A DNA stretch of 64,000 nt from Alphaproteobacteria bacterium (GTDB taxonomy: Bacteria > Pseudomonadota > Alphaproteobacteria > Micavibrionales > Micavibrionaceae): contig JBOEGQ010000007.1 of NCBI GenBank assembly GCA_050633505.1, positions 13,921 through 77,920 of the forward strand, given 5' to 3'. The number at the start of each line of letters is the position of its first letter. Within the stretch, counting starts at the first letter, position 1. The notes under the pieces were generated by a model. That model did not search any database. It saw nothing but the letters and a program-made list of their open reading frames with translations, and was not told the origin of the DNA. Shown one piece after another: positions 18,961 to 60,610 of the stretch. The translations under genes and the position numbers were made by a program.

Positions 18961-19548
18961 ATGCGCGGCCTTCACTTTCTTTTCTCTGTATTTATGCTTT
19001 TCGGATTTTCTTATCCGGCAATAGCAGCCGATGAAATCACCGATTTTCTTCAGGAGAAAATCGAAGGCGTAGCCCTAAGCATGACCGTACAAGAAGCAAA
19101 AACAGAGCTTAAAAAGCGTGGGTATACACCTGTCGGGGAAATTGAAAATCATGAGTATATAAACGGAGCTCAGCATACATATCGGTTCCAAAAGGATGGG
19201 AAATATAAGGTCGCCATAACAACTGCTCGCACGTACAAGGATGCATCAGCTCCCTTAACACGCAACCTCTCAGATATATCGTATAAAGAAGATATCCCTA
19301 AAATCGTTGACATATATAATCCCCAAACACATTATGTTTGCCCAAAGGTTATTGCGCAATATAAGAGGTTCTGCCCTCAAGCAGGTGAGCAATCCTGTCA
19401 GTTTGATTCAAACGTACGAATATATAGCCATAACTACCATATCCGACACCATCCTGATGATAAATTTATGCTTGAGGCCAATGCGCAGGTCAATCAGCGA
19501 TGCGGTATTATGCTGATGCGTAAATCTCCTTATCGCCCTCAACTATAG
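18961..19548 (+). CDS. secreted hypothetical protein
   Basis: 195 aa with a signal peptide ending AIAA. I recognise no family. Confidence 0.5.
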   Translation: MRGLHFLFSVFMLFGFSYPAIAADEITDFLQEKIEGVALSMTVQEAKTELKKRGYTPVGEIENHEYINGAQHTYRFQKDGKYKVAITTARTYKDASAPLTRNLSDISYKEDIPKIVDIYNPQTHYVCPKVIAQYKRFCPQAGEQSCQFDSNVRIYSHNYHIRHHPDDKFMLEANAQVNQRCGIMLMRKSPYRPQL

Positions 19549-19679
19549 TATGAAAAACACAAATACAAAATTCGGCTCCCCTCCTTTATTAACTTGCGAA
19601 GAATTTCTTTTCCCATGAATTTTTTATCGTTCTTGCGAGATCGCTGGACTCTGTTCCGGCCTTGCGTCACTTTACCTCT

Positions 19680-22484
19680 ATGAGCGATACAAACACAGAT
19701 GAATTATTCCTGATCGACGGATCAGGCTTTATTTTCCGCGCCTATTTTGCGATGGCATATTCACGGCAAAGCGGTATGACCAACCCCGAAGGCGTCGAAG
19801 TCGGTGCGGTATATGGCTATACCAACATGATTATGAAGATGATCCGTGATTATCACGCCCCCTATATGGCGGTGATTTTTGATACAGCGCGCAAGAATTT
19901 TCGCAACGATATTTATGCAGAGTATAAAGCCAATCGCGATGAAACACCGGAAGATCTCATTCCACAATTTCCCCTTATCCGTGAGGCAACACGCGCGTTT
20001 GACATTCCCGCGCTAGAAATGGATGGGTATGAAGCCGATGATTTGATTGCGGCCTATGCCAAAAAGGCCAAAGAAGCTGGTAAGAAAGTTGTTATTGTCT
20101 CATCCGATAAGGATTTGATGCAGTTGGTTGGAGATGGCGTACGCATGCTTGACCCGATGAAAAGCAAATGGATCGAAGAAGAACAAGTTATCGAGAAATT
20201 TGGTGTCCCGCCAAACCGTGTTGTGGATGTGCAATCCCTCGCGGGTGATAGTGTCGATAATGTACCAGGTGTACCCGGTATAGGTATTAAGACCGCCGCG
20301 CAGCTTATCAATGAATATGGCTCACTTGATGAACTTTTGGCACGTGCAGAAGAAATTAAACAACCTAAACGCCGCGAGAAGCTGGTCAATCACGCGGAAG
20401 ATGCGCGCATATCGCGTCAACTTGTGCAGTTGGATGAGGATGCGCCTTTACCTACCCCGCTAGAGGAACTGAAAACGCATGACCCTGATAAACCTGAGCT
20501 CATGGCCTTTTTACAAAAACAGGCCTTTAACTCAATCATAAAACGCTTGGGTGGTGAGGTGGTCAGTGCGCCAAAGCCAACAATCGAAACAGATAAGAAT
20601 GCAGCCATTGAAGAAGAAATATTTCCGGCCGCAGCAGAAAATCAATACACGCTTATCAATGATGAAAAAACGCTGCAAGAGTGGTTAAGCACTGCCGAGC
20701 AAGAAGGCATGCTTGCCATCGATACGGAAACGACCAGCCTAACCCCCGCAAAGGCCGATTTGGTGGGTATATCAATTGCGTCACAAATTGGTAAGGCGGC
20801 CTATATCCCGCTTGGCCATGTGCAAGAGACAGACCTGTTCGGGATGGCAAATGATGACCAAACACCGCAAATGGATAAAGCAAAAGCCATTGCCCTACTC
20901 AAACCGGTCTTAGAAGATCCGTCGGTGTTAAAGGTCGGTCATAACATGAAATATGATTGGCAAATTCTGGCAAAAGAAGGTGTTCATATTACGCCATGCG
21001 ATGACACGATGCTTATCTCTTATGTATTGGATGGGGCGAAACATCGCCACTCTATGGATAGTTTGTCAGAGCTTTACTGCGATCATAGCCCGATCAAATA
21101 TGAAGAGGTTGCCGGCAAAGGCAAAACGCAAGTGACTTTTGATAAGGTCGCAATTCAAGATGCACTCACCTACGCCGCAGAAGACGCAGAAATTACACTG
21201 CGCCTGCACAAAATTCTAAAACCACGTTTGGCGCGTGAAAAAATGGTCAGTGTTTACGAAACGATTGAACGTCCGCTCATTCCTATCATTGCACAAATGG
21301 AATTAGACGGCGTCAAAGTTGACCCGAAGAAACTCCACGAAATGAGTGAGGACTTTGGCCAGCAGCTAACCACATTAGAACAAGAAATTTACGATCTGGC
21401 AGAGCGTGAGTTCAATATCGCATCCCCTAAACAGGTGGGTGAAGTGCTATTTGATGAAATGGGTTTGCAAGGCGGTAAAAAAACAAAGACAGGAACATAC
21501 TCAACGTCTGTAGATGTGTTAGAAAAGTTAGCCTTAGAGGGGCACGAAATTGTTCAAAAAATATTGGATTACCGTGGTCTTGCCAAGTTAAAATCAACCT
21601 ATACAGATGCATTGCAGGGAGAAATAAACCCAAAAACAGGGCGTGTTCATACCTCATACAACATGGTCGGAACAAGCACAGGACGCTTATCATCCTCCAA
21701 CCCTAACTTGCAGAACATCCCTATACGTACTGAGGAAGGACGCAAAATCCGTGAGGCCTTTATTGCGGACGATGGAAACATCATTGTATCTGTTGACTAT
21801 TCGCAAGTAGAATTACGCCTTGCCGCAGAAATGGCAGATGTAGAAGCACTCAAAAAAGCATTCCAAGATGGCGTGGATATTCATAGCCTCACCGCATCAC
21901 GCGTCTTTGATGTCCCCTTAGAAGATGTCAGTCCCGAAATCCGCAGACAGGCAAAGGCTGTTAATTTTGGTATTATCTATGGTATTTCAGGCTTTGGCTT
22001 GGCAAAGCAGCTTGGCTGTCCGGTTGGTCAGGCCAGTGATTTTATAAAACGTTATCTCGCGCGTTTTCACGAAATTGAAAGCTATATGGAGACCACAAAA
22101 GAAGAGGCAAAGCGCGATGGCTATGTTTCCACTCTGTATGGGCGCAAATGTTTTATTCCCGGAATTCAGGACAAAAACCAGATGCGTGTACGCGGCGCAG
22201 AGCGTCAAGCGATCAATGCGCCACTTCAAGGAACAGCCGCAGACATCATGAAAATTGCAATGGCACGTATGCCCGACATTCTAATATCAAACAATTTATC
22301 CGCAAAAATGCTTTTACAGGTTCATGATGAGCTTATTTTTGAAGTTCCGGCCTCTGAATTAGACAAAACAATAGAAATCATAAAAGATTCTATGGAAAAC
22401 TCATTTAAGATCAATGGGATATCCATATCCGTGCCACTTGATGCCGAAGGTGGCTCAGGGAAAAATTGGGCTGAAGCTCATTAA
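19680..22484 (+). CDS. polA: DNA polymerase I
   Basis: 5'-nuclease, 3'-5' exonuclease (LAIDTETTSL) and polymerase domains, with motif A DYSQVELR and motif C QVHDELIFE. The start is set at the ATG (MSDTN). Confidence 0.97.
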   Translation: MSDTNTDELFLIDGSGFIFRAYFAMAYSRQSGMTNPEGVEVGAVYGYTNMIMKMIRDYHAPYMAVIFDTARKNFRNDIYAEYKANRDETPEDLIPQFPLIREATRAFDIPALEMDGYEADDLIAAYAKKAKEAGKKVVIVSSDKDLMQLVGDGVRMLDPMKSKWIEEEQVIEKFGVPPNRVVDVQSLAGDSVDNVPGVPGIGIKTAAQLINEYGSLDELLARAEEIKQPKRREKLVNHAEDARISRQLVQLDEDAPLPTPLEELKTHDPDKPELMAFLQKQAFNSIIKRLGGEVVSAPKPTIETDKNAAIEEEIFPAAAENQYTLINDEKTLQEWLSTAEQEGMLAIDTETTSLTPAKADLVGISIASQIGKAAYIPLGHVQETDLFGMANDDQTPQMDKAKAIALLKPVLEDPSVLKVGHNMKYDWQILAKEGVHITPCDDTMLISYVLDGAKHRHSMDSLSELYCDHSPIKYEEVAGKGKTQVTFDKVAIQDALTYAAEDAEITLRLHKILKPRLAREKMVSVYETIERPLIPIIAQMELDGVKVDPKKLHEMSEDFGQQLTTLEQEIYDLAEREFNIASPKQVGEVLFDEMGLQGGKKTKTGTYSTSVDVLEKLALEGHEIVQKILDYRGLAKLKSTYTDALQGEINPKTGRVHTSYNMVGTSTGRLSSSNPNLQNIPIRTEEGRKIREAFIADDGNIIVSVDYSQVELRLAAEMADVEALKKAFQDGVDIHSLTASRVFDVPLEDVSPEIRRQAKAVNFGIIYGISGFGLAKQLGCPVGQASDFIKRYLARFHEIESYMETTKEEAKRDGYVSTLYGRKCFIPGIQDKNQMRVRGAERQAINAPLQGTAADIMKIAMARMPDILISNNLSAKMLLQVHDELIFEVPASELDKTIEIIKDSMENSFKINGISISVPLDAEGGSGKNWAEAH

Positions 22485-22541
22485 ATCACCTCCTAAATAC
22501 ATAAAAAATGCACTTTAATGCAGAAAATACGTATTTTTATG

Positions 22542-22573
22542 TTGACATAACTTTCCATATTGCGGTATATAAT
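22542..22573 (+). promoter_or_regulatory. sigma70-like promoter candidate for the downstream hairpin RNA
   Basis: TTGACA (22542-22547) and TATATAAT (22566-22573). The spacer is 18 nt to TATATA or 20 nt to TATAAT. Confidence 0.45.
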
Positions 22574-22579
22574 TGTCAT

Positions 22580-22760
22580 ACCGTAACGGATTGTTTATCC
22601 CCACACACTTAAACAATCATAGCGGATAAAAAAATATTTGAGATCTGAATATCTCCCCACACACATATTCAGATCTCAAATAAGAATAAATACAGTTCCC
22701 CACACACGGAAAGTTGAGGCCGTTCTTAGTTTACTAAGGGCGGTCTCGCTGTATGTGCGC
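22580..22760 (+). ncRNA. candidate multi-hairpin sRNA with three TCCCCACACAC motifs (strand uncertain)
   Basis: Hairpin 1 has a 9-bp stem (22589-22597/22610-22618) and loop UCCCCACACACU. Hairpin 2 has a 16-18-bp stem (22637-22652/22665-22680) and loop CUCCCCACACAC. A third motif copy at 22697-22707 is followed by a hairpin of about 14 bp (22716-22747). The motif is identical in all three copies while the stems are unrelated. Confidence 0.5.
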
Positions 22761-22786
22761 ATCTGTTATTCATTAAAATAAAGAGA

Positions 22787-23698
22787 TTATTTTTCAAATT
22801 TTCCGGCGGCAATAATATAATTATTTTTGCTATCCTGCACTAAAATGGCGAAGCCCTTCGACGTTTCATTCATCTTCGGATAAAAGGACATAACTTTGAT
22901 TTGCCCACTCCATTTCCCTAAAAAACCGGCCTTGGACACAACGTTATAATAGGTCAGATCTTTCCCTATATTTGCACCATCGGCAATCCTATGCTGTATT
23001 GGGGGCTCATACACCAAAAGCCAAATTGTATACTCCCCTGCCGATGCATAGGGTAAAATCACAGAAAACATCCCCTCTTCTTGCTTACGAATACTCACTG
23101 GTAAGAAAGGCTTTTGCATTGCCTTGTTCAATGCCAAGGACACTTCCTCTTCATGATAACCTACCGCATCATAACGCCCGTTCATAACCATTTGCGGCGT
23201 GTATTTAGGCCCAATATTCAATGAGTGTTCATAGGCAATTTGACGTGTAGAACAAATTGGTAATGATAAGGACCCTTCACGCACATCAAAATAATCAACA
23301 TGACATGACAAGGCGATAATATTCTCACGCGCGATAAAGTCCTTCATAACTTCATCTGCCTTAGGACAAAATGTACAGGCCTGCGTCGAGAATAGCTCCA
23401 GAACAATACCACTTGCGGCATTCTTCATATCAGGAAGTAAGGGCAATACTTCTCTTACTTGAGATTTAGAGGGAACCACACTGTCTTGTGGCGGTTTGAT
23501 AATATCACGTTTTTTTTGCTGTACCTCTGGTGCAGCAGGCACAGGTAAGGCCTCTATCGCCACCCCCTCCACCGGCACAGCAGGCGGCAAGTCAATCTCA
23601 GCCACAGCAGAGAAAGACACAAAAAGACCACAGGCCACCATTAAAAAAAACGTACGAAATTCTTTCATAACATACACAGATATAATATAGCGCATCAC
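22787..23698 (-). CDS. DUF1223 family thioredoxin-like secreted protein
   Basis: ELFSTQACTFCPKAD matches the DUF1223 ELF(T/S)SQGCSSCPPAD core. It has an N-terminal signal/TM and a Pro-rich spacer. The start may be MKEFRTF at 23668. Confidence 0.75.
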   Translation of the reverse strand: MMRYIISVYVMKEFRTFFLMVACGLFVSFSAVAEIDLPPAVPVEGVAIEALPVPAAPEVQQKKRDIIKPPQDSVVPSKSQVREVLPLLPDMKNAASGIVLELFSTQACTFCPKADEVMKDFIARENIIALSCHVDYFDVREGSLSLPICSTRQIAYEHSLNIGPKYTPQMVMNGRYDAVGYHEEEVSLALNKAMQKPFLPVSIRKQEEGMFSVILPYASAGEYTIWLLVYEPPIQHRIADGANIGKDLTYYNVVSKAGFLGKWSGQIKVMSFYPKMNETSKGFAILVQDSKNNYIIAAGKFEK

Positions 23699-43052: not shown

Positions 43053-43469
43053 TTACGTTTTTCGGGGCAGAGCCTCTATAACAACAAAAGCCTGCGCGTA
43101 TGGTGGATCATCGCTTAAAGATAAGTGAACAACACTTTGCATTTCCGGTGGTGTTATCGCCTGAAGCCGTGCAAGAGCACCATCTTGTAACTCTAAAAAC
43201 GGACGACCATCTTCATTCTCAATAACCCCGATATCTTTCATATGCACACCATAAGAAAACCCGGTTCCAAGCGCCTTCGCACATGCCTCTTTTGCGGCAA
43301 AACGTTTTGCAAGAACACTCACAGCGCCATCTTTCGTACCACCACGCCGCGCGGCTTTCTTACGCTCATGCTCTGTAAAGCAACGTGTTTCAAAACGCAC
43401 ACCATGACGATCCCACACTTGTGCGATGCGCCTAATATCCACCAAATCATTTCCAATACCAATAATCAT
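43053..43469 (-). CDS. acpS: holo-[acyl-carrier-protein] synthase
   Basis: MIIGIGNDLVDIRRI N-terminus and FAAKEACAKALG. The start is trimmed from the track ORF. Confidence 0.92.
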   Translation of the reverse strand: MIIGIGNDLVDIRRIAQVWDRHGVRFETRCFTEHERKKAARRGGTKDGAVSVLAKRFAAKEACAKALGTGFSYGVHMKDIGVIENEDGRPFLELQDGALARLQAITPPEMQSVVHLSLSDDPPYAQAFVVIEALPRKT

Positions 43470-51118: not shown

Positions 51119-51307
51119 CTAATCAAGCTCCCGCGCTTCGTCAACCAGCATAACCGGAATACCATCACGGATCGGATAAGCGCGTCCGGCTTGCTCGGAA
51201 ATAAGTTCCTGCGCCTTCCGATCATACGTCAACGGCCCCTTAGTTACAGGGCAAACAAGAATTTCCAATAGCTTTGGATCGACTTCAACACTCACATCCG
51301 GCTCCAT
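51119..51307 (-). CDS. Trm112/UPF0434 family protein
   Basis: [17 protein letters not shown]....[25 protein letters not shown] is the canonical Trm112-like sequence. Confidence 0.88.
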
Positions 51308-51384: not shown

Positions 51385-51537
51385 TTACAGGCTTTTCATT
51401 TTAACAGCTTTTAAAGGAACAAGTTCCTCACAAATCATGTCAATTTCCAAGGCCGCCATACGTTCTCTCATCCTGTCATTAGAGACAGGAAGATCGATCA
51501 GCCAAAGGTCTTTTTTAGTTTCTTCACGAACAGACAT
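51385..51537 (-). CDS. small ORF (50 aa), possibly DUF1192-like
   Basis: It lies below the track threshold. My translation is MSVREETKKDLWLIDLPVSNDRMRERMAALEIDMICEELVPLKAVKMKSL. The DL..S...M.ERMAALE pattern loosely recalls DUF1192. This call is weak. Confidence 0.25.
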   Translation of the reverse strand: MSVREETKKDLWLIDLPVSNDRMRERMAALEIDMICEELVPLKAVKMKSL

Positions 51538-59086: not shown

Positions 59087-60556
59087 ATGTTTTTCATCGG
59101 GCGCGTTTGGTCATGGAAAGATATTGTTATGACGTTAGATATTGAAGAATACATTCCCTACCTTGAAGGCCTTGCCATGTCGCGTGCAAATAAGGAACAA
59201 ATGATCCGCATCGTGTGGGGATTCATGGAAAGCCATATTGATCAGGCCTTTGGTTTGCATCCAGTTCAACAGGCACAAAATTGTAAAAGAAAAAGCATTC
59301 ACATCCGCTCTGCTATCTCTGAGGCAGGCGGCATTCTGAAAAGCCCCTCCATTGAGTTTGGAGAAGACTCTGACAGTCGGCTGGTGGAGCATTTACTCGC
59401 CTCAGTAGCCGCACACCAGCGGGAGAAGAATGCCGAGCAGGTTAAAAACCGCATGAGGGCGCGTGTTCTAAACGGCTATTGCGTGACTGCACCAGTGATT
59501 GGCTATCGCTATGAGAAGGTTGAGGGGCATGGCAAATTACTGGTGCGGGATGAGCCAGTGGCCTCCATCATTCAGGAGGTGTTGGAAGGGTTTGCGCATG
59601 GGCGCTTTGGTTCTCAGGCGGAGGTGAAACGGTTTTTAGAAGGCCATGCGGCCTATCCGAAAGGCAGCGATGGCGAAGTGCATTGGCAGCGCGTAACAGA
59701 GATGTTCAGGCGCGTGGTTTATGCGGGTCGCCTGTCTATGCCCGACTGGGGCATTCACAATCACCCAGCGCAACATGAAGCGCTGGTGAGTTATGAGACT
59801 TGGCAGAAAATTCAAGGCAGACTGAATAAGCCCAAGAGAGCGCCCATACGCAAAGATATCAATGCCGACTTCCCGTTACGGGGGTTTGTGACGTGTGGCT
59901 GTTGCGGCCATCCGATGACCTCGTGCTGGTCAAAGGGGAGTAAGGCAAGTTACGCCTATTACCTTTGTTTCAAGAAAGGCTGTGAGCACTATAAGAAATC
60001 TATTCCACGGGATAAGTTGGAAGGTGAATTTGCTGCGCTTATCTCCGACTTTACCCCGCCGAGGCAATTATTCGTGATGGCGGTGGAAATGCTGCACAAG
60101 CTATGGGATGACCGTTCGGACAAGCGCAAAGAGGAAGAGGCACATCTTGAGGTGGCTTTAGATAAGACGGAGCGACAGATCGGGCAATTGCTGGATCGGA
60201 TTGTGGACGCGCAGAACGCGAGTGTGGTTACGGCCTATGAAACGCGCATTCAAGCCTTGGAAGATGAGAAGATCGTTTTGCGGGAAAAAATCGAGAAATG
60301 CGGGTGTGCGTTGCCTGACTTTAGCGGGACTTTTCGAACAGCTTTAAAATTCCTCGCAAACCCGCATGAATTATAGTCTTCGGATGATCTTACCGATAAG
60401 CGTAAGGCGTTGAAGATGATGTTTACGGAAGTTTTACCGTATGAGCGAAACGGAGGTTTTCGAACACCCCCAATCGCCCAGCCTATAAGGCTTTTGAGCG
60501 ACTTGCTGGGGGGTAAGGATGTTATGGTGGAGGGGGCAGGATTCGAACCTGCGTAG
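59087..60556 (+). pseudogene. large serine recombinase, degenerate (catalytic N-terminus missing, in-frame TAG at 60374-60376)
   Basis: The recombinase domain and zinc-ribbon are present (APVIGYRYEK..., RGFVTCGCCGHPMTSCWSKG...YYLCFKKGC) along with a coiled coil. No YxRxSxxxQ nucleophile motif precedes them. After the TAG the same frame continues 59 more codons (SSDDLTDKRKALKMMFTEVLPYERNGGFRTP...VMVEGAGFEPA) to a stop at 60554-60556, inside the tRNA. Confidence 0.8.
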
Positions 60557-60610
60557 ACTAACGTCGTCGGAGTTACAATCCGATGCCTTTAACCACTCGA
60601 CCACCCCTCC
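60525..60610 (-). tRNA. tRNA-Tyr (anticodon GTA), CCA encoded
   Basis: The minus strand reads GGAGGGGTGGTCGAGTGGTTAAAGGCATCGGATTGTAACTCCGACGACGTTAGTCTACGCAGGTTCGAATCCTGCCCCCTCCACCA. It has a 7-bp acceptor stem, an anticodon stem TCGGA/TCCGA with loop TTGTAAC, a long variable arm and a GGTTCGAATCC T-loop, and it aligns well with E. coli tRNA-Tyr. Confidence 0.95.

Follow-up and report, generated by a model that had tools for sequence, protein, structure and literature searches.

A putative small RNA with recurrent C/A-rich loops downstream of polA in uncultured Alphaproteobacteria

What does the 302-nt spacer between polA and a convergent DUF1223 gene encode in an uncultured alphaproteobacterium? 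The spacer (polA stop ending at 22484, DUF1223 stop at 22787) belongs to a 64-kb stretch of contig JBOEGQ010000007.1 (assembly GCA_050633505.1; G+C content ~44%). We call this whole stretch the window, and its positions serve as coordinates throughout (Table 1). The spacer carries a conserved RNA element on the plus strand. Judged from its sequence and from that of its relatives, the spacer element is very probably a functional, independently transcribed small RNA (sRNA), and it probably acts as a base-pairing regulator that uses C/A-rich loops as seeds.

The element is organized around one short motif. The 11-mer TCCCCACACAC occurs in three exact plus-strand copies (22598-22608, 22654-22664 and 22697-22707) and nowhere else in the window. 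A search that tolerates one mismatch adds a single site at 19320, compared with a mean of 0.78 matches per window in shuffled sequence, and the 8-mer CCCCACAC has one additional occurrence, at 59213 on the minus strand. The first copy fills most of the 12-nt loop (22598-22609) of a perfect stem in hairpin 1, and the second occupies the 12-nt loop (22653-22664) of hairpin 2. Between the two hairpins runs a single-stranded, A-rich linker, which on the minus strand reads as a U-run after hairpin 2; A-rich linkers are also found in the related loci L022, L245, L121 and L123. The third copy lies in a 3' module, between ATACAG (22690-22695) and a terminal hairpin. ATACAG pairs with CTGTAT (22749-22754), and the resulting closing helix ACAG/CUGU (22692-22695 with 22749-22752) encloses the third copy. 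A preliminary description of the locus had reported the three unique copies, the stem of 9 bp around the first, the long perfect stem around the second and the ATACAG/CTGTAT closure, and all were recovered here, the motif copies at the same coordinates and hairpin 2 with its full 18 bp. The same description placed the third copy in a single strand beside a hairpin of about 14 bp. The neighboring hairpin stands, but the copy need not be purely single-stranded, given that a 4-bp UUCC/GGAA mini-hairpin (22696-22699 with 22708-22711) can form around it with the loop CCACACAC. Folding of the plus-strand RNA from 22576 to 22760 yields -63.7 kcal/mol, with z = -8.2 relative to dinucleotide shuffles, and no convincing small open reading frame (ORF) was found in the window spacer.

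Is this arrangement maintained in related genomes? We compared 13 polA loci, namely the window, L022, L121-L124 and L245-L251, all from metagenome-assembled genomes (MAGs) of uncultured Alphaproteobacteria. Their polA sequences are 69-92% identical to that of the window; the closest, at 92%, comes from MAG GCA_041156545.1, and polA genes of 69-82% identity occur in many MAGs titled "Alphaproteobacteria bacterium", "Rhodospirillales bacterium" or "uncultured Micavibrio sp.". The element is located directly 3' of the polA stop codon and on the same strand in 12 of the 13 loci, including the window; L250 lacks it, and there a convergent gene begins 22 nt past polA. The element is kept whichever gene follows, be it DUF1223, an NfeD-like gene, an OmpA-like gene, a 142-amino-acid ORF or a same-strand hydrolase gene. 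DUF1223 comes next in L122, L124 and L245-L249, and not in L121, L123, L250 or L251.

The relatives share the promoter, the loop sequences and the 20-mer AGUUCCCCACACACGGAAAG (also written AGTTCCCCACACACGGAAAG), which includes the third motif copy and is identical in all 12 element loci; the sequence surrounding the 20-mer is not conserved. No two of the 12 loci have the same hairpin-1 stem, apart from the near-identical L247 and L248, and pairing is kept in every case (for example GAUUGUUUA/UAAACAAUC, GUGCUCUU/AAGGGCAC, GGGUGGCU/AGCCACC and CUUCGGCAG/CUGCCGAAG). Two layouts are seen. Group A (window, L121, L022, L245, L122 and L123) consists of hairpin 1, hairpin 2 and the 3' module, and group B (L124, L246-L249 and L251) consists of hairpin 1, a motif-free middle and the 3' module, without hairpin 2 and the A-run. 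The hairpin-2 stems of the group A orthologues are unrelated in sequence, and their motif is degenerate in L122 (UCCACAU), L245 (CCACACAC) and L123 (CCCCACAU). The loop consensus is YCCCCACACAC(A), a CCUC element appears only in hairpin 1 of L022 (CCUCCACACAC) and L251 (CCCCCUCACACAC), and the motifs are placed in loops by the minimum free energy (MFE) folds of all 11 folded loci.

These comparisons bear on the nature of the repeat. Three direct copies within 110 bp might denote a DNA-level repeat, such as a repetitive extragenic palindrome or miniature inverted-repeat transposable element (REP/MITE), a CRISPR-like remnant or an array of DNA-binding sites, and many type I-E-like CRISPR repeats among the matches listed in our genome-contig scan have the motif core, CCCCACACAC, as their own core. 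Such an explanation is hardly credible. The element occupies a single syntenic locus, has stems that differ between relatives and does not recur in the rest of the 64 kb. Its motif copies are spaced 56 and 43 nt apart, unlike CRISPR repeats, their flanks are unrepeated, and covarying stems that include G·U pairs make sense only in RNA. The view taken in the preliminary description, that of a selected RNA motif rather than a mobile repeat, is thus borne out by synteny in 12 of 13 loci, by covarying stems around conserved loops and by the lack of dispersed copies in the window.

The covariation can be stated quantitatively. For the 3' module, 13 sequences were realigned to a covariance model, R1 (alignment A5), and compared with 500 shuffles. 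Compensatory change is seen in 11 of its 22 pairs, and 85.8% of the cells are paired versus 77% in the shuffles; sliding the partners lowers the value to 59% or less, and none of the 500 shuffles attains the observed value on any of five measures. Covariation support for the closing helix ACAG/CUGU is modest, with a change from C-G to A-U in four sequences. The loop hairpins are not alignable column by column because the offset of the motif within the loops varies. We examined them in a pseudo-alignment of the seven loop-proximal pairs from 19 motif hairpins, with loops trimmed by our own construction. In this pseudo-alignment, standard pairs fill 88.7% of the cells versus 42.9% in shuffles, none of which, out of 500, attains the observed value; all seven pairs display compensatory change, and the covariation score is 1.15 versus 0.24. 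As a negative control, only 2 of 121 unrelated two-motif metagenome matches had stems around their motifs, and both were tandem repeats. Because hairpin lengths differ, alignment of the full-length RNAs with MAFFT and RNAalifold resolved the 3' module only in part, and the covariance-model and loop-trimmed alignments were used instead.

Which strand carries the RNA? The plus strand is assigned because the conserved promoter points that way, because the terminal hairpin keeps conserved G·U pairs (at columns 35/55, for instance, 11 of 13 sequences have UG) that the opposite strand would render as A·C mismatches, because the minus strand folds less well (z = -4.0 versus -8.2), with the terminal hairpin broken up, and because U-rich tails of the CGCUUUUUU type follow the last hairpin in L124, L246, L245 and L251 (CGCUUUUUU itself in L124 and L246, CGCUGUAUUUU in L245). 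The preliminary description had left room for a minus-strand transcript, for instance the 3' untranslated region (3'UTR) of the DUF1223 mRNA, whose loops would read GUGUGUGGGGA and display GGA as in CsrA sites. Although the GGA would indeed lie in loops and the minus strand too folds better than shuffles, the promoter, the G·U pairs and the plus-strand U-tails run counter to this idea; moreover, the element persists without an adjacent minus-strand gene, as in L251, and a search of the 64 kb for a csrA homologue was negative, which is weak evidence. We regard a minus-strand function as very improbable.

A more modest role is also conceivable, in which the hairpins merely terminate the convergent polA and DUF1223 transcripts or stabilize their 3'UTRs, with hairpin 2 and its A/U run working in both directions and with no function in trans. 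The genes on either side of the element do converge, no terminator lies between it and polA, and hairpin 2 is followed on the minus strand by AUAUUUUUUUAUCC. However, terminators need neither invariant loops nor a conserved upstream promoter, the element is kept where the downstream gene differs or is on the same strand (L121, L123 and L251), and hairpin 2 and the A-run are absent from group B. As a full account, this one appears improbable. Hairpin 2 may nonetheless double as a terminator for the convergent DUF1223 gene, with the qualification that group B lacks it.

How would the RNA be expressed? A sigma-70-type promoter precedes hairpin 1 and is predicted to drive a plus-strand RNA of ~180 nt. 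The relatives follow the pattern TTGAC(A/T/G)-N17-(C/G)TATAT-like, with TTGAC(A/T/G) at the same place in all 11 aligned loci and TTGACA likewise in L251. In L121 the promoter reads exactly TTGACA-N17-CTATAT, which is the alphaproteobacterial sigma-70 consensus as quoted in the αr sRNA literature. The near-consensus promoter of the preliminary description, with 18 nt to TATATA, is the same promoter counted differently, with 17 nt to GTATAT. A simple promoter scan omitted it because that scan demands T at position 6 of the second hexamer. The RNA would start 7-9 nt past the -10 element, at a conserved CAUAA, and end after the closing helix, each end being placed to within ~5-10 nt. Tandem boxes (ATGCA, ATGCA and ACGTA, spaced at 10-11 nt) abut the -35 element, and the promoter is therefore probably regulated. 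These boxes are kept in the group A orthologues L121, L245, L122 and L123, a distal TTTATGCAY box is present in nearly all loci, and the sequence pattern suggests a candidate array of transcription factor-binding sites, perhaps for an activator.

Some observations weigh against independent transcription with a defined 3' end. The last hairpin of the window is followed by GCUGUAUGUG rather than a U tract, and the terminator scan was negative there. The same scan, over 22300-23000, gave zero terminator-like sites and thus none between polA and the sRNA promoter. Since a proper U tract and a polA terminator are both missing, the RNA could also arise from polA read-through and processing. As a separate observation, a G/U-rich tail follows the last hairpin in the window (22749-22760, GCUGUAUGUG), in L121 (6090-6104, GUAUGUGGGGUG) and in L122 (6080-6092, GCUGUGUGUGUUU), and in the MFE folds of L121-L123 this tail pairs with the third motif copy. 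In these models, the tail may represent an alternative, self-masking structure or sequence past the 3' end.

What might an independently transcribed RNA of this design do? Its fold would comprise two long hairpins plus a closed 3' module with a terminator-like hairpin at its end, and each of the three parts would expose (U)CCCCACACAC in a loop. The three loops most likely serve as redundant seeds for pairing with G/U-rich GUGUGUGGGG(A)-type sequences that overlap the Shine-Dalgarno regions of target mRNAs. Such pairing would block ribosome binding and repress translation, with or without mRNA decay. The A-rich linker is possibly an Hfq-type (ARN) binding stretch, in which case the RNA may depend on the chaperone. 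Among the traits of Hfq-dependent sRNAs, the promoter, the A-rich linker and, in relatives, complementary ribosome-binding sites (RBSs) are present; the U tail is poor in the window and good in L124, L246 and L245. The 64 kb yielded no hfq gene, which is uninformative.

The candidate target comes from the conserved gene order polA, sRNA, DUF1223 (minus strand), α/β-hydrolase (plus strand), rpmI and rplT. The hydrolase orthologues comprise 246-262 amino acids, match PF00561/PF12146 and are 26-71% identical to one another. In the related loci, the complement of the motif is rare except at this gene: a GUGUGUGGG(G/A)-like sequence coincides with the hydrolase RBS in five of seven orthologues versus 2 of 82 other gene starts. 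Counted as GTGTG within 30 nt upstream (5/7 hydrolase starts versus 2/82 other called starts), the enrichment has a Fisher p value of 1e-5, or 5e-5 after the close relatives L124 and L246 are merged; because the hydrolase sites share ancestry, the test overstates their independence. The sites read GUGUGUGGGG in L249, GUGUGUGGGA in L124 and L246, CUGUGUGAGG in L251 and UUCGUGUGUG in L122, and the leaders around them have otherwise diverged. In L251, the variant hairpin-1 loop contains CCUCACACA, the exact 9-nt complement of the site UGUGUGAGG in the same genome. L250 has neither the sRNA after polA nor the site on the hydrolase gene. The RBS sites, the L251 match and the double absence in L250 all fit the prediction of a seed in a loop and thus favor translational repression through loop-RBS pairing.

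The two GTGTG starts outside the hydrolase genes belong to one and the same TPR-protein gene in L124 and L246, which is, by sequence, a second possible sRNA target in group B genomes; its orthologue in L247 has only UGUGGUAAGGGGA. This gene begins directly after GUGUGGAGUGUGGGG-AUG, just downstream of a terminator hairpin (L124 1640-1670; L246 646-676).

However, several results speak against base pairing. The 64 kb of the window do not include the hydrolase gene, and target scans of the window by duplex and by 7-mer gave good sites only within genes, at 59213 inside a recombinase-like ORF and at 43418 in an ORF whose first residues are our only ground for calling it acpS. At start codons, the window offers a single candidate site, GUAUGUGGGGUAUUUUAUG, a weak 9/10 match at the RBS of a 50-amino-acid ORF. 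Near-complementary sites (two mismatches or fewer) upstream of ORFs number 19, compared with a mean of 23 for permuted motifs. L245 possesses the sRNA and a hydrolase orthologue without the site. The correspondence of loop and site in L251 is weaker than a true compensatory pair because GAGG there is simply a canonical Shine-Dalgarno sequence. Hybridization of the whole sRNA to the hydrolase leaders with duplexfold did not separate them from shuffled targets; since duplexfold ignores intramolecular structure, it was set aside in favor of contiguous complementarity. The 5S rRNA was considered as a pairing partner and rejected: E. coli 5S rRNA contains GUGUGGGG, and the 5S gene in L008 has only GGUGUGGGA, within a helix.

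Could the loops bind a protein instead? In such a sponge, the repeated CCCCACACAC loops would bind and titrate an RNA-binding protein, in the manner of CsrB/RsmZ or CrcZ. Several identical motifs in loops on freely varying stems form the classic layout of a sponge, and near-complementary sites are not generally enriched upstream of ORFs in the available sequence. The invariant flanks AGUU and GGAAAG of the third motif exceed what a seed needs and would also fit a protein-binding site; the invariance of the whole 20-mer, flanks included, thus gives the sponge model some weight. Opposed to it are the lack of a known candidate protein, the low number of motif copies (two or three, where typical Csr/Rsm sponges carry more), the loop variant of L251 that fits its own mRNA site, and the exact coincidence, in several lineages, of the motif complement with the RBS of a syntenic gene, which a sponge does not predict unless the protein binds the opposite sequence too. 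We consider protein sequestration unlikely, yet it is the main rival of base pairing. A more specific form, to which we give slightly less weight, is that the loops, above all AGUUCCCCACACACGGAAAG, are the recognition element of a novel RNA-binding regulator in Alphaproteobacteria that lack CsrA, with the RNA as its sponge. This model would found a new Csr/Crc-like post-transcriptional system. In a variant, the RNA may sponge a G/U-rich sRNA, and under either form of titration the GUGUGUGGGG sites at RBSs would become a secondary feature.

How does the base-pairing candidate compare with known RNAs? With the Rfam 15 models, the only match in the window at the gathering score was a tRNA; in 22400-22900, the matches with E values up to 10 were to miRNA, snoRNA and unrelated sRNA models, fell far short of the gathering scores and are ascribed to chance, and eight related loci gave no match at the element. 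Thus, as far as the window and these eight relatives go, the covariance-model search proposed in the preliminary description returned no described family. Literature searches for the motif string retrieved only primers and unrelated text, and those for Micavibrio sRNAs retrieved nothing relevant.

The nearest parallel is the cuckoo RNAs (αr14/CcsR = RSs0680a-d/NfeR1) of Rhizobiales and Rhodobacterales, which carry two to four hairpins with compensatory stems and a conserved C-rich loop motif (PMC4615179, PMC3346310). That family is defined by the loop motif CCUCCUCCC in each hairpin, and its RNAs form a linear string of hairpins without a multiloop (PMC4615179). As in the cuckoo RNAs, adjacent hairpins with freely varying stems share a common loop motif, here in two long hairpins plus the 3' module, and both are alphaproteobacterial, have their own promoter and are proposed to pair with RBSs. 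The preliminary description had already drawn this likeness while noting the different loop motif, and the variable paired stems and YCCCCACACAC(A) loops of the relatives agree with it. Unlike the cuckoo loops, those described here are (U)CCCCACACAC, not CCUCCUCCC, and are complementary to GUGUGUGGGG rather than to a plain Shine-Dalgarno sequence. Furthermore, the MFE fold places the last motif in a closed multibranch 3' module with a 20-nt invariant stretch, although covariation support for the closing helix is modest. The RNA occurs in a different, uncultured clade, where it follows polA as one syntenic copy, and it matches no Rfam model. The polA-downstream RNA is therefore analogous to cuckoo/αr14, not a member of it.

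Another alphaproteobacterial sRNA, αr7/SmrC7 (Smr7C) of Sinorhizobium meliloti, is ~150 nt long, has three covarying stem-loops and borders polA (PMC2780559, PMC3346310). It resides in the polA/SMc02851 spacer, marked '< >' in Table 1 of the original report (PMC2780559). The two RNAs thus share covarying stem-loops and an intergenic region next to polA. However, we read SmrC7 as lying on the 5' side of polA and divergent from it, whereas the RNA described here is 3' of polA and on the same strand in 12 of 12 loci; the CCCCACACAC motif is not reported for αr7, and a search of the window for the published 25-nt SmrC7 probe, with up to three mismatches allowed, was negative. Identity with αr7/SmrC7 was rejected on the grounds of the other side of polA, the divergent orientation, the unrelated sequence and the absence of an Rfam match (E up to 10).

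Staphylococcal RNAs of the RNAIII/RsaE type use several loops with a UCCC motif to pair with G-rich RBSs (summarised in PMC4615179). They belong to an unrelated phylum and are unrelated in sequence, and UCCC is short in comparison with the 10-nt C/A-rich core seen here. Repetition of one short motif in exposed loops or single-stranded regions is also characteristic of CsrB/RsmZ, whose GGA loops bind CsrA, and of CrcZ, whose CA-rich motifs bind Hfq/Crc. The transcribed-strand motif of the present RNA is neither GGA nor of the A-rich CrcZ type, occurs in two or three copies and has a complementary mRNA site in relatives. In Enterobacteria, the G/U-rich sRNA GcvB pairs with C/A-rich mRNAs near the RBS. 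In the RNA described here the polarity is reversed, with a C/A-rich sRNA, and there is no homology to GcvB in sequence or structure and no Rfam match.

The polA-downstream RNA is thus a new family built on a known plan, with an identical loop motif, variable stems and no Rfam 15 match. The novelty lies in the family rather than in the mechanism, the type of regulator being a familiar one, and the RNA adds a well-supported family in Alphaproteobacteria known almost only from metagenomes; to our knowledge, nothing has been described of riboregulation in this host group. The cuckoo/αr14 design would have arisen again with a different, C/A-rich seed. The proposed pairing of the loop with the RBS of a specific α/β-hydrolase mRNA is a testable hypothesis, and the invariant 20-mer can be used as an annotation marker for the family in related genomes.

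Table 1. Positions of the polA-downstream element, its neighbors and related features (window positions unless a locus is named)
Feature	Position	Strand	Description
polA (DNA polymerase I)	19662-22484	+	ORF; homologues with PF02739, PF01367, PF01612 and PF00476
Tandem boxes	22508, 22518, 22529 (22508-22533)	+	ATGCA, ATGCA, ACGTA
Promoter	22542-22570	+	sigma-70-type; TTGACA 22542-22547, 17-nt spacer, GTATAT 22565-22570
Predicted sRNA	22578-22760	+	~175-185 nt
Hairpin 1, whole	22581-22625	+	outer CCGU/GCGG, 22581-22584 with 22622-22625
Hairpin 1, inner stem	22589-22597 / 22610-22618	+	GATTGTTTA / TAAACAATC; perfect 9 bp, 12-nt loop
Linker	22626-22634	+	AUAAAAAAA; A-rich, single-stranded, between hairpins 1 and 2
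Hairpin 2	22635-22682	+	22635-22652 with 22665-22682; perfect 18 bp, 12-nt loop
3' module	22690-22754	+	closing helix, 20-mer, possible mini-hairpin, terminal hairpin
20-mer	22694-22713	+	AGUUCCCCACACACGGAAAG; includes motif copy 3; identical in 12/12 element loci
Terminal hairpin (hairpin 3)	22716-22729 with 22734-22747	+	14 bp including three G·U
DUF1223 gene	22787-23698	-	convergent; Pfam PF06764, E 2.5e-36
50-amino-acid ORF	51385-51537	-	no Pfam match; upstream of Trm112-like gene 51119-51307
Hydrolase start, L249			UUGUGUGUGGGGAUAGGC-GUG
Hydrolase start, L124			GUGUGUGGGAUGCUAAA-AUG
Hydrolase start, L246			CUGUGUGUGGGAUGCUAAA-AUG
Hydrolase start, L251			CUGUGUGAGGUGAUA-AUG
Hydrolase start, L122			UUCGUGUGUGCUU-AUG
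Two-motif CCCCACACAC RNA, L008	1764-1930	-	CAAGUUACCCCACACAC, then clean rho-independent terminator; divergent XRE/HTH_3 gene
Two-motif CCCCACACAC RNA, L084	604-760	-	CAAGUUACCCCACACAC, then clean rho-independent terminator; divergent XRE/HTH_3 gene

The Pfam match listed in Table 1 also settles the identity of the downstream convergent gene, which the preliminary description had named as DUF1223.

Does the motif occur beyond the polA loci? Viral contigs contained no match to the 19-mer, and an L008-type 17-mer had one chance match there without a hairpin. When metagenomes were scanned with a refined motif pattern, low-complexity (CA)n DNA of eukaryote-like character dominated the matches. A scan of genome contigs with the pattern CCCCACACACN{25,55}CCCCACACAC returned, among the matches listed, mostly type I-E-like CRISPR arrays with CCCCACACAC(G/A) in their repeats, as in GTTCCCCACACACGTGGGGAT. 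Because such repeats contain CCCCACACAC, searches for pairs of this motif at 25-55 nt are dominated by CRISPR arrays. The useful loci among the matches listed were L022, L008, L084, L091 and L092. Model R1 matches L008, at E 2e-6, and L084, at E 8e-4, each with a two-motif RNA (Table 1); L008 is labelled as a Bdellovibrionales MAG, and L084 comes from an Alphaproteobacteria MAG. L091 and L092, also from Alphaproteobacteria MAGs, contain two hairpins with the motif in their loops in other contexts, without the 3' module and without an R1 match, and these two may reflect either common descent or convergence.

Two further observations concern the surrounding genes. The recombinase-like ORF in the window (59087-60376, plus strand) has Recombinase and Zn_ribbon_recom domains without the N-terminal resolvase catalytic domain, and adjoins a tRNA gene (60528-60610, minus strand); the pairing of a serine recombinase with a tRNA is also seen in L124, and the combination suggests the remnant of an integrated element. 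In addition, a gene of the DotI/IcmL family (type IVB secretion) adjoins rplT in L247 (7918-8664), L248 (7883-8659) and L251 (8267-8974), possibly a sign that members of the clade live in association with hosts or prey.

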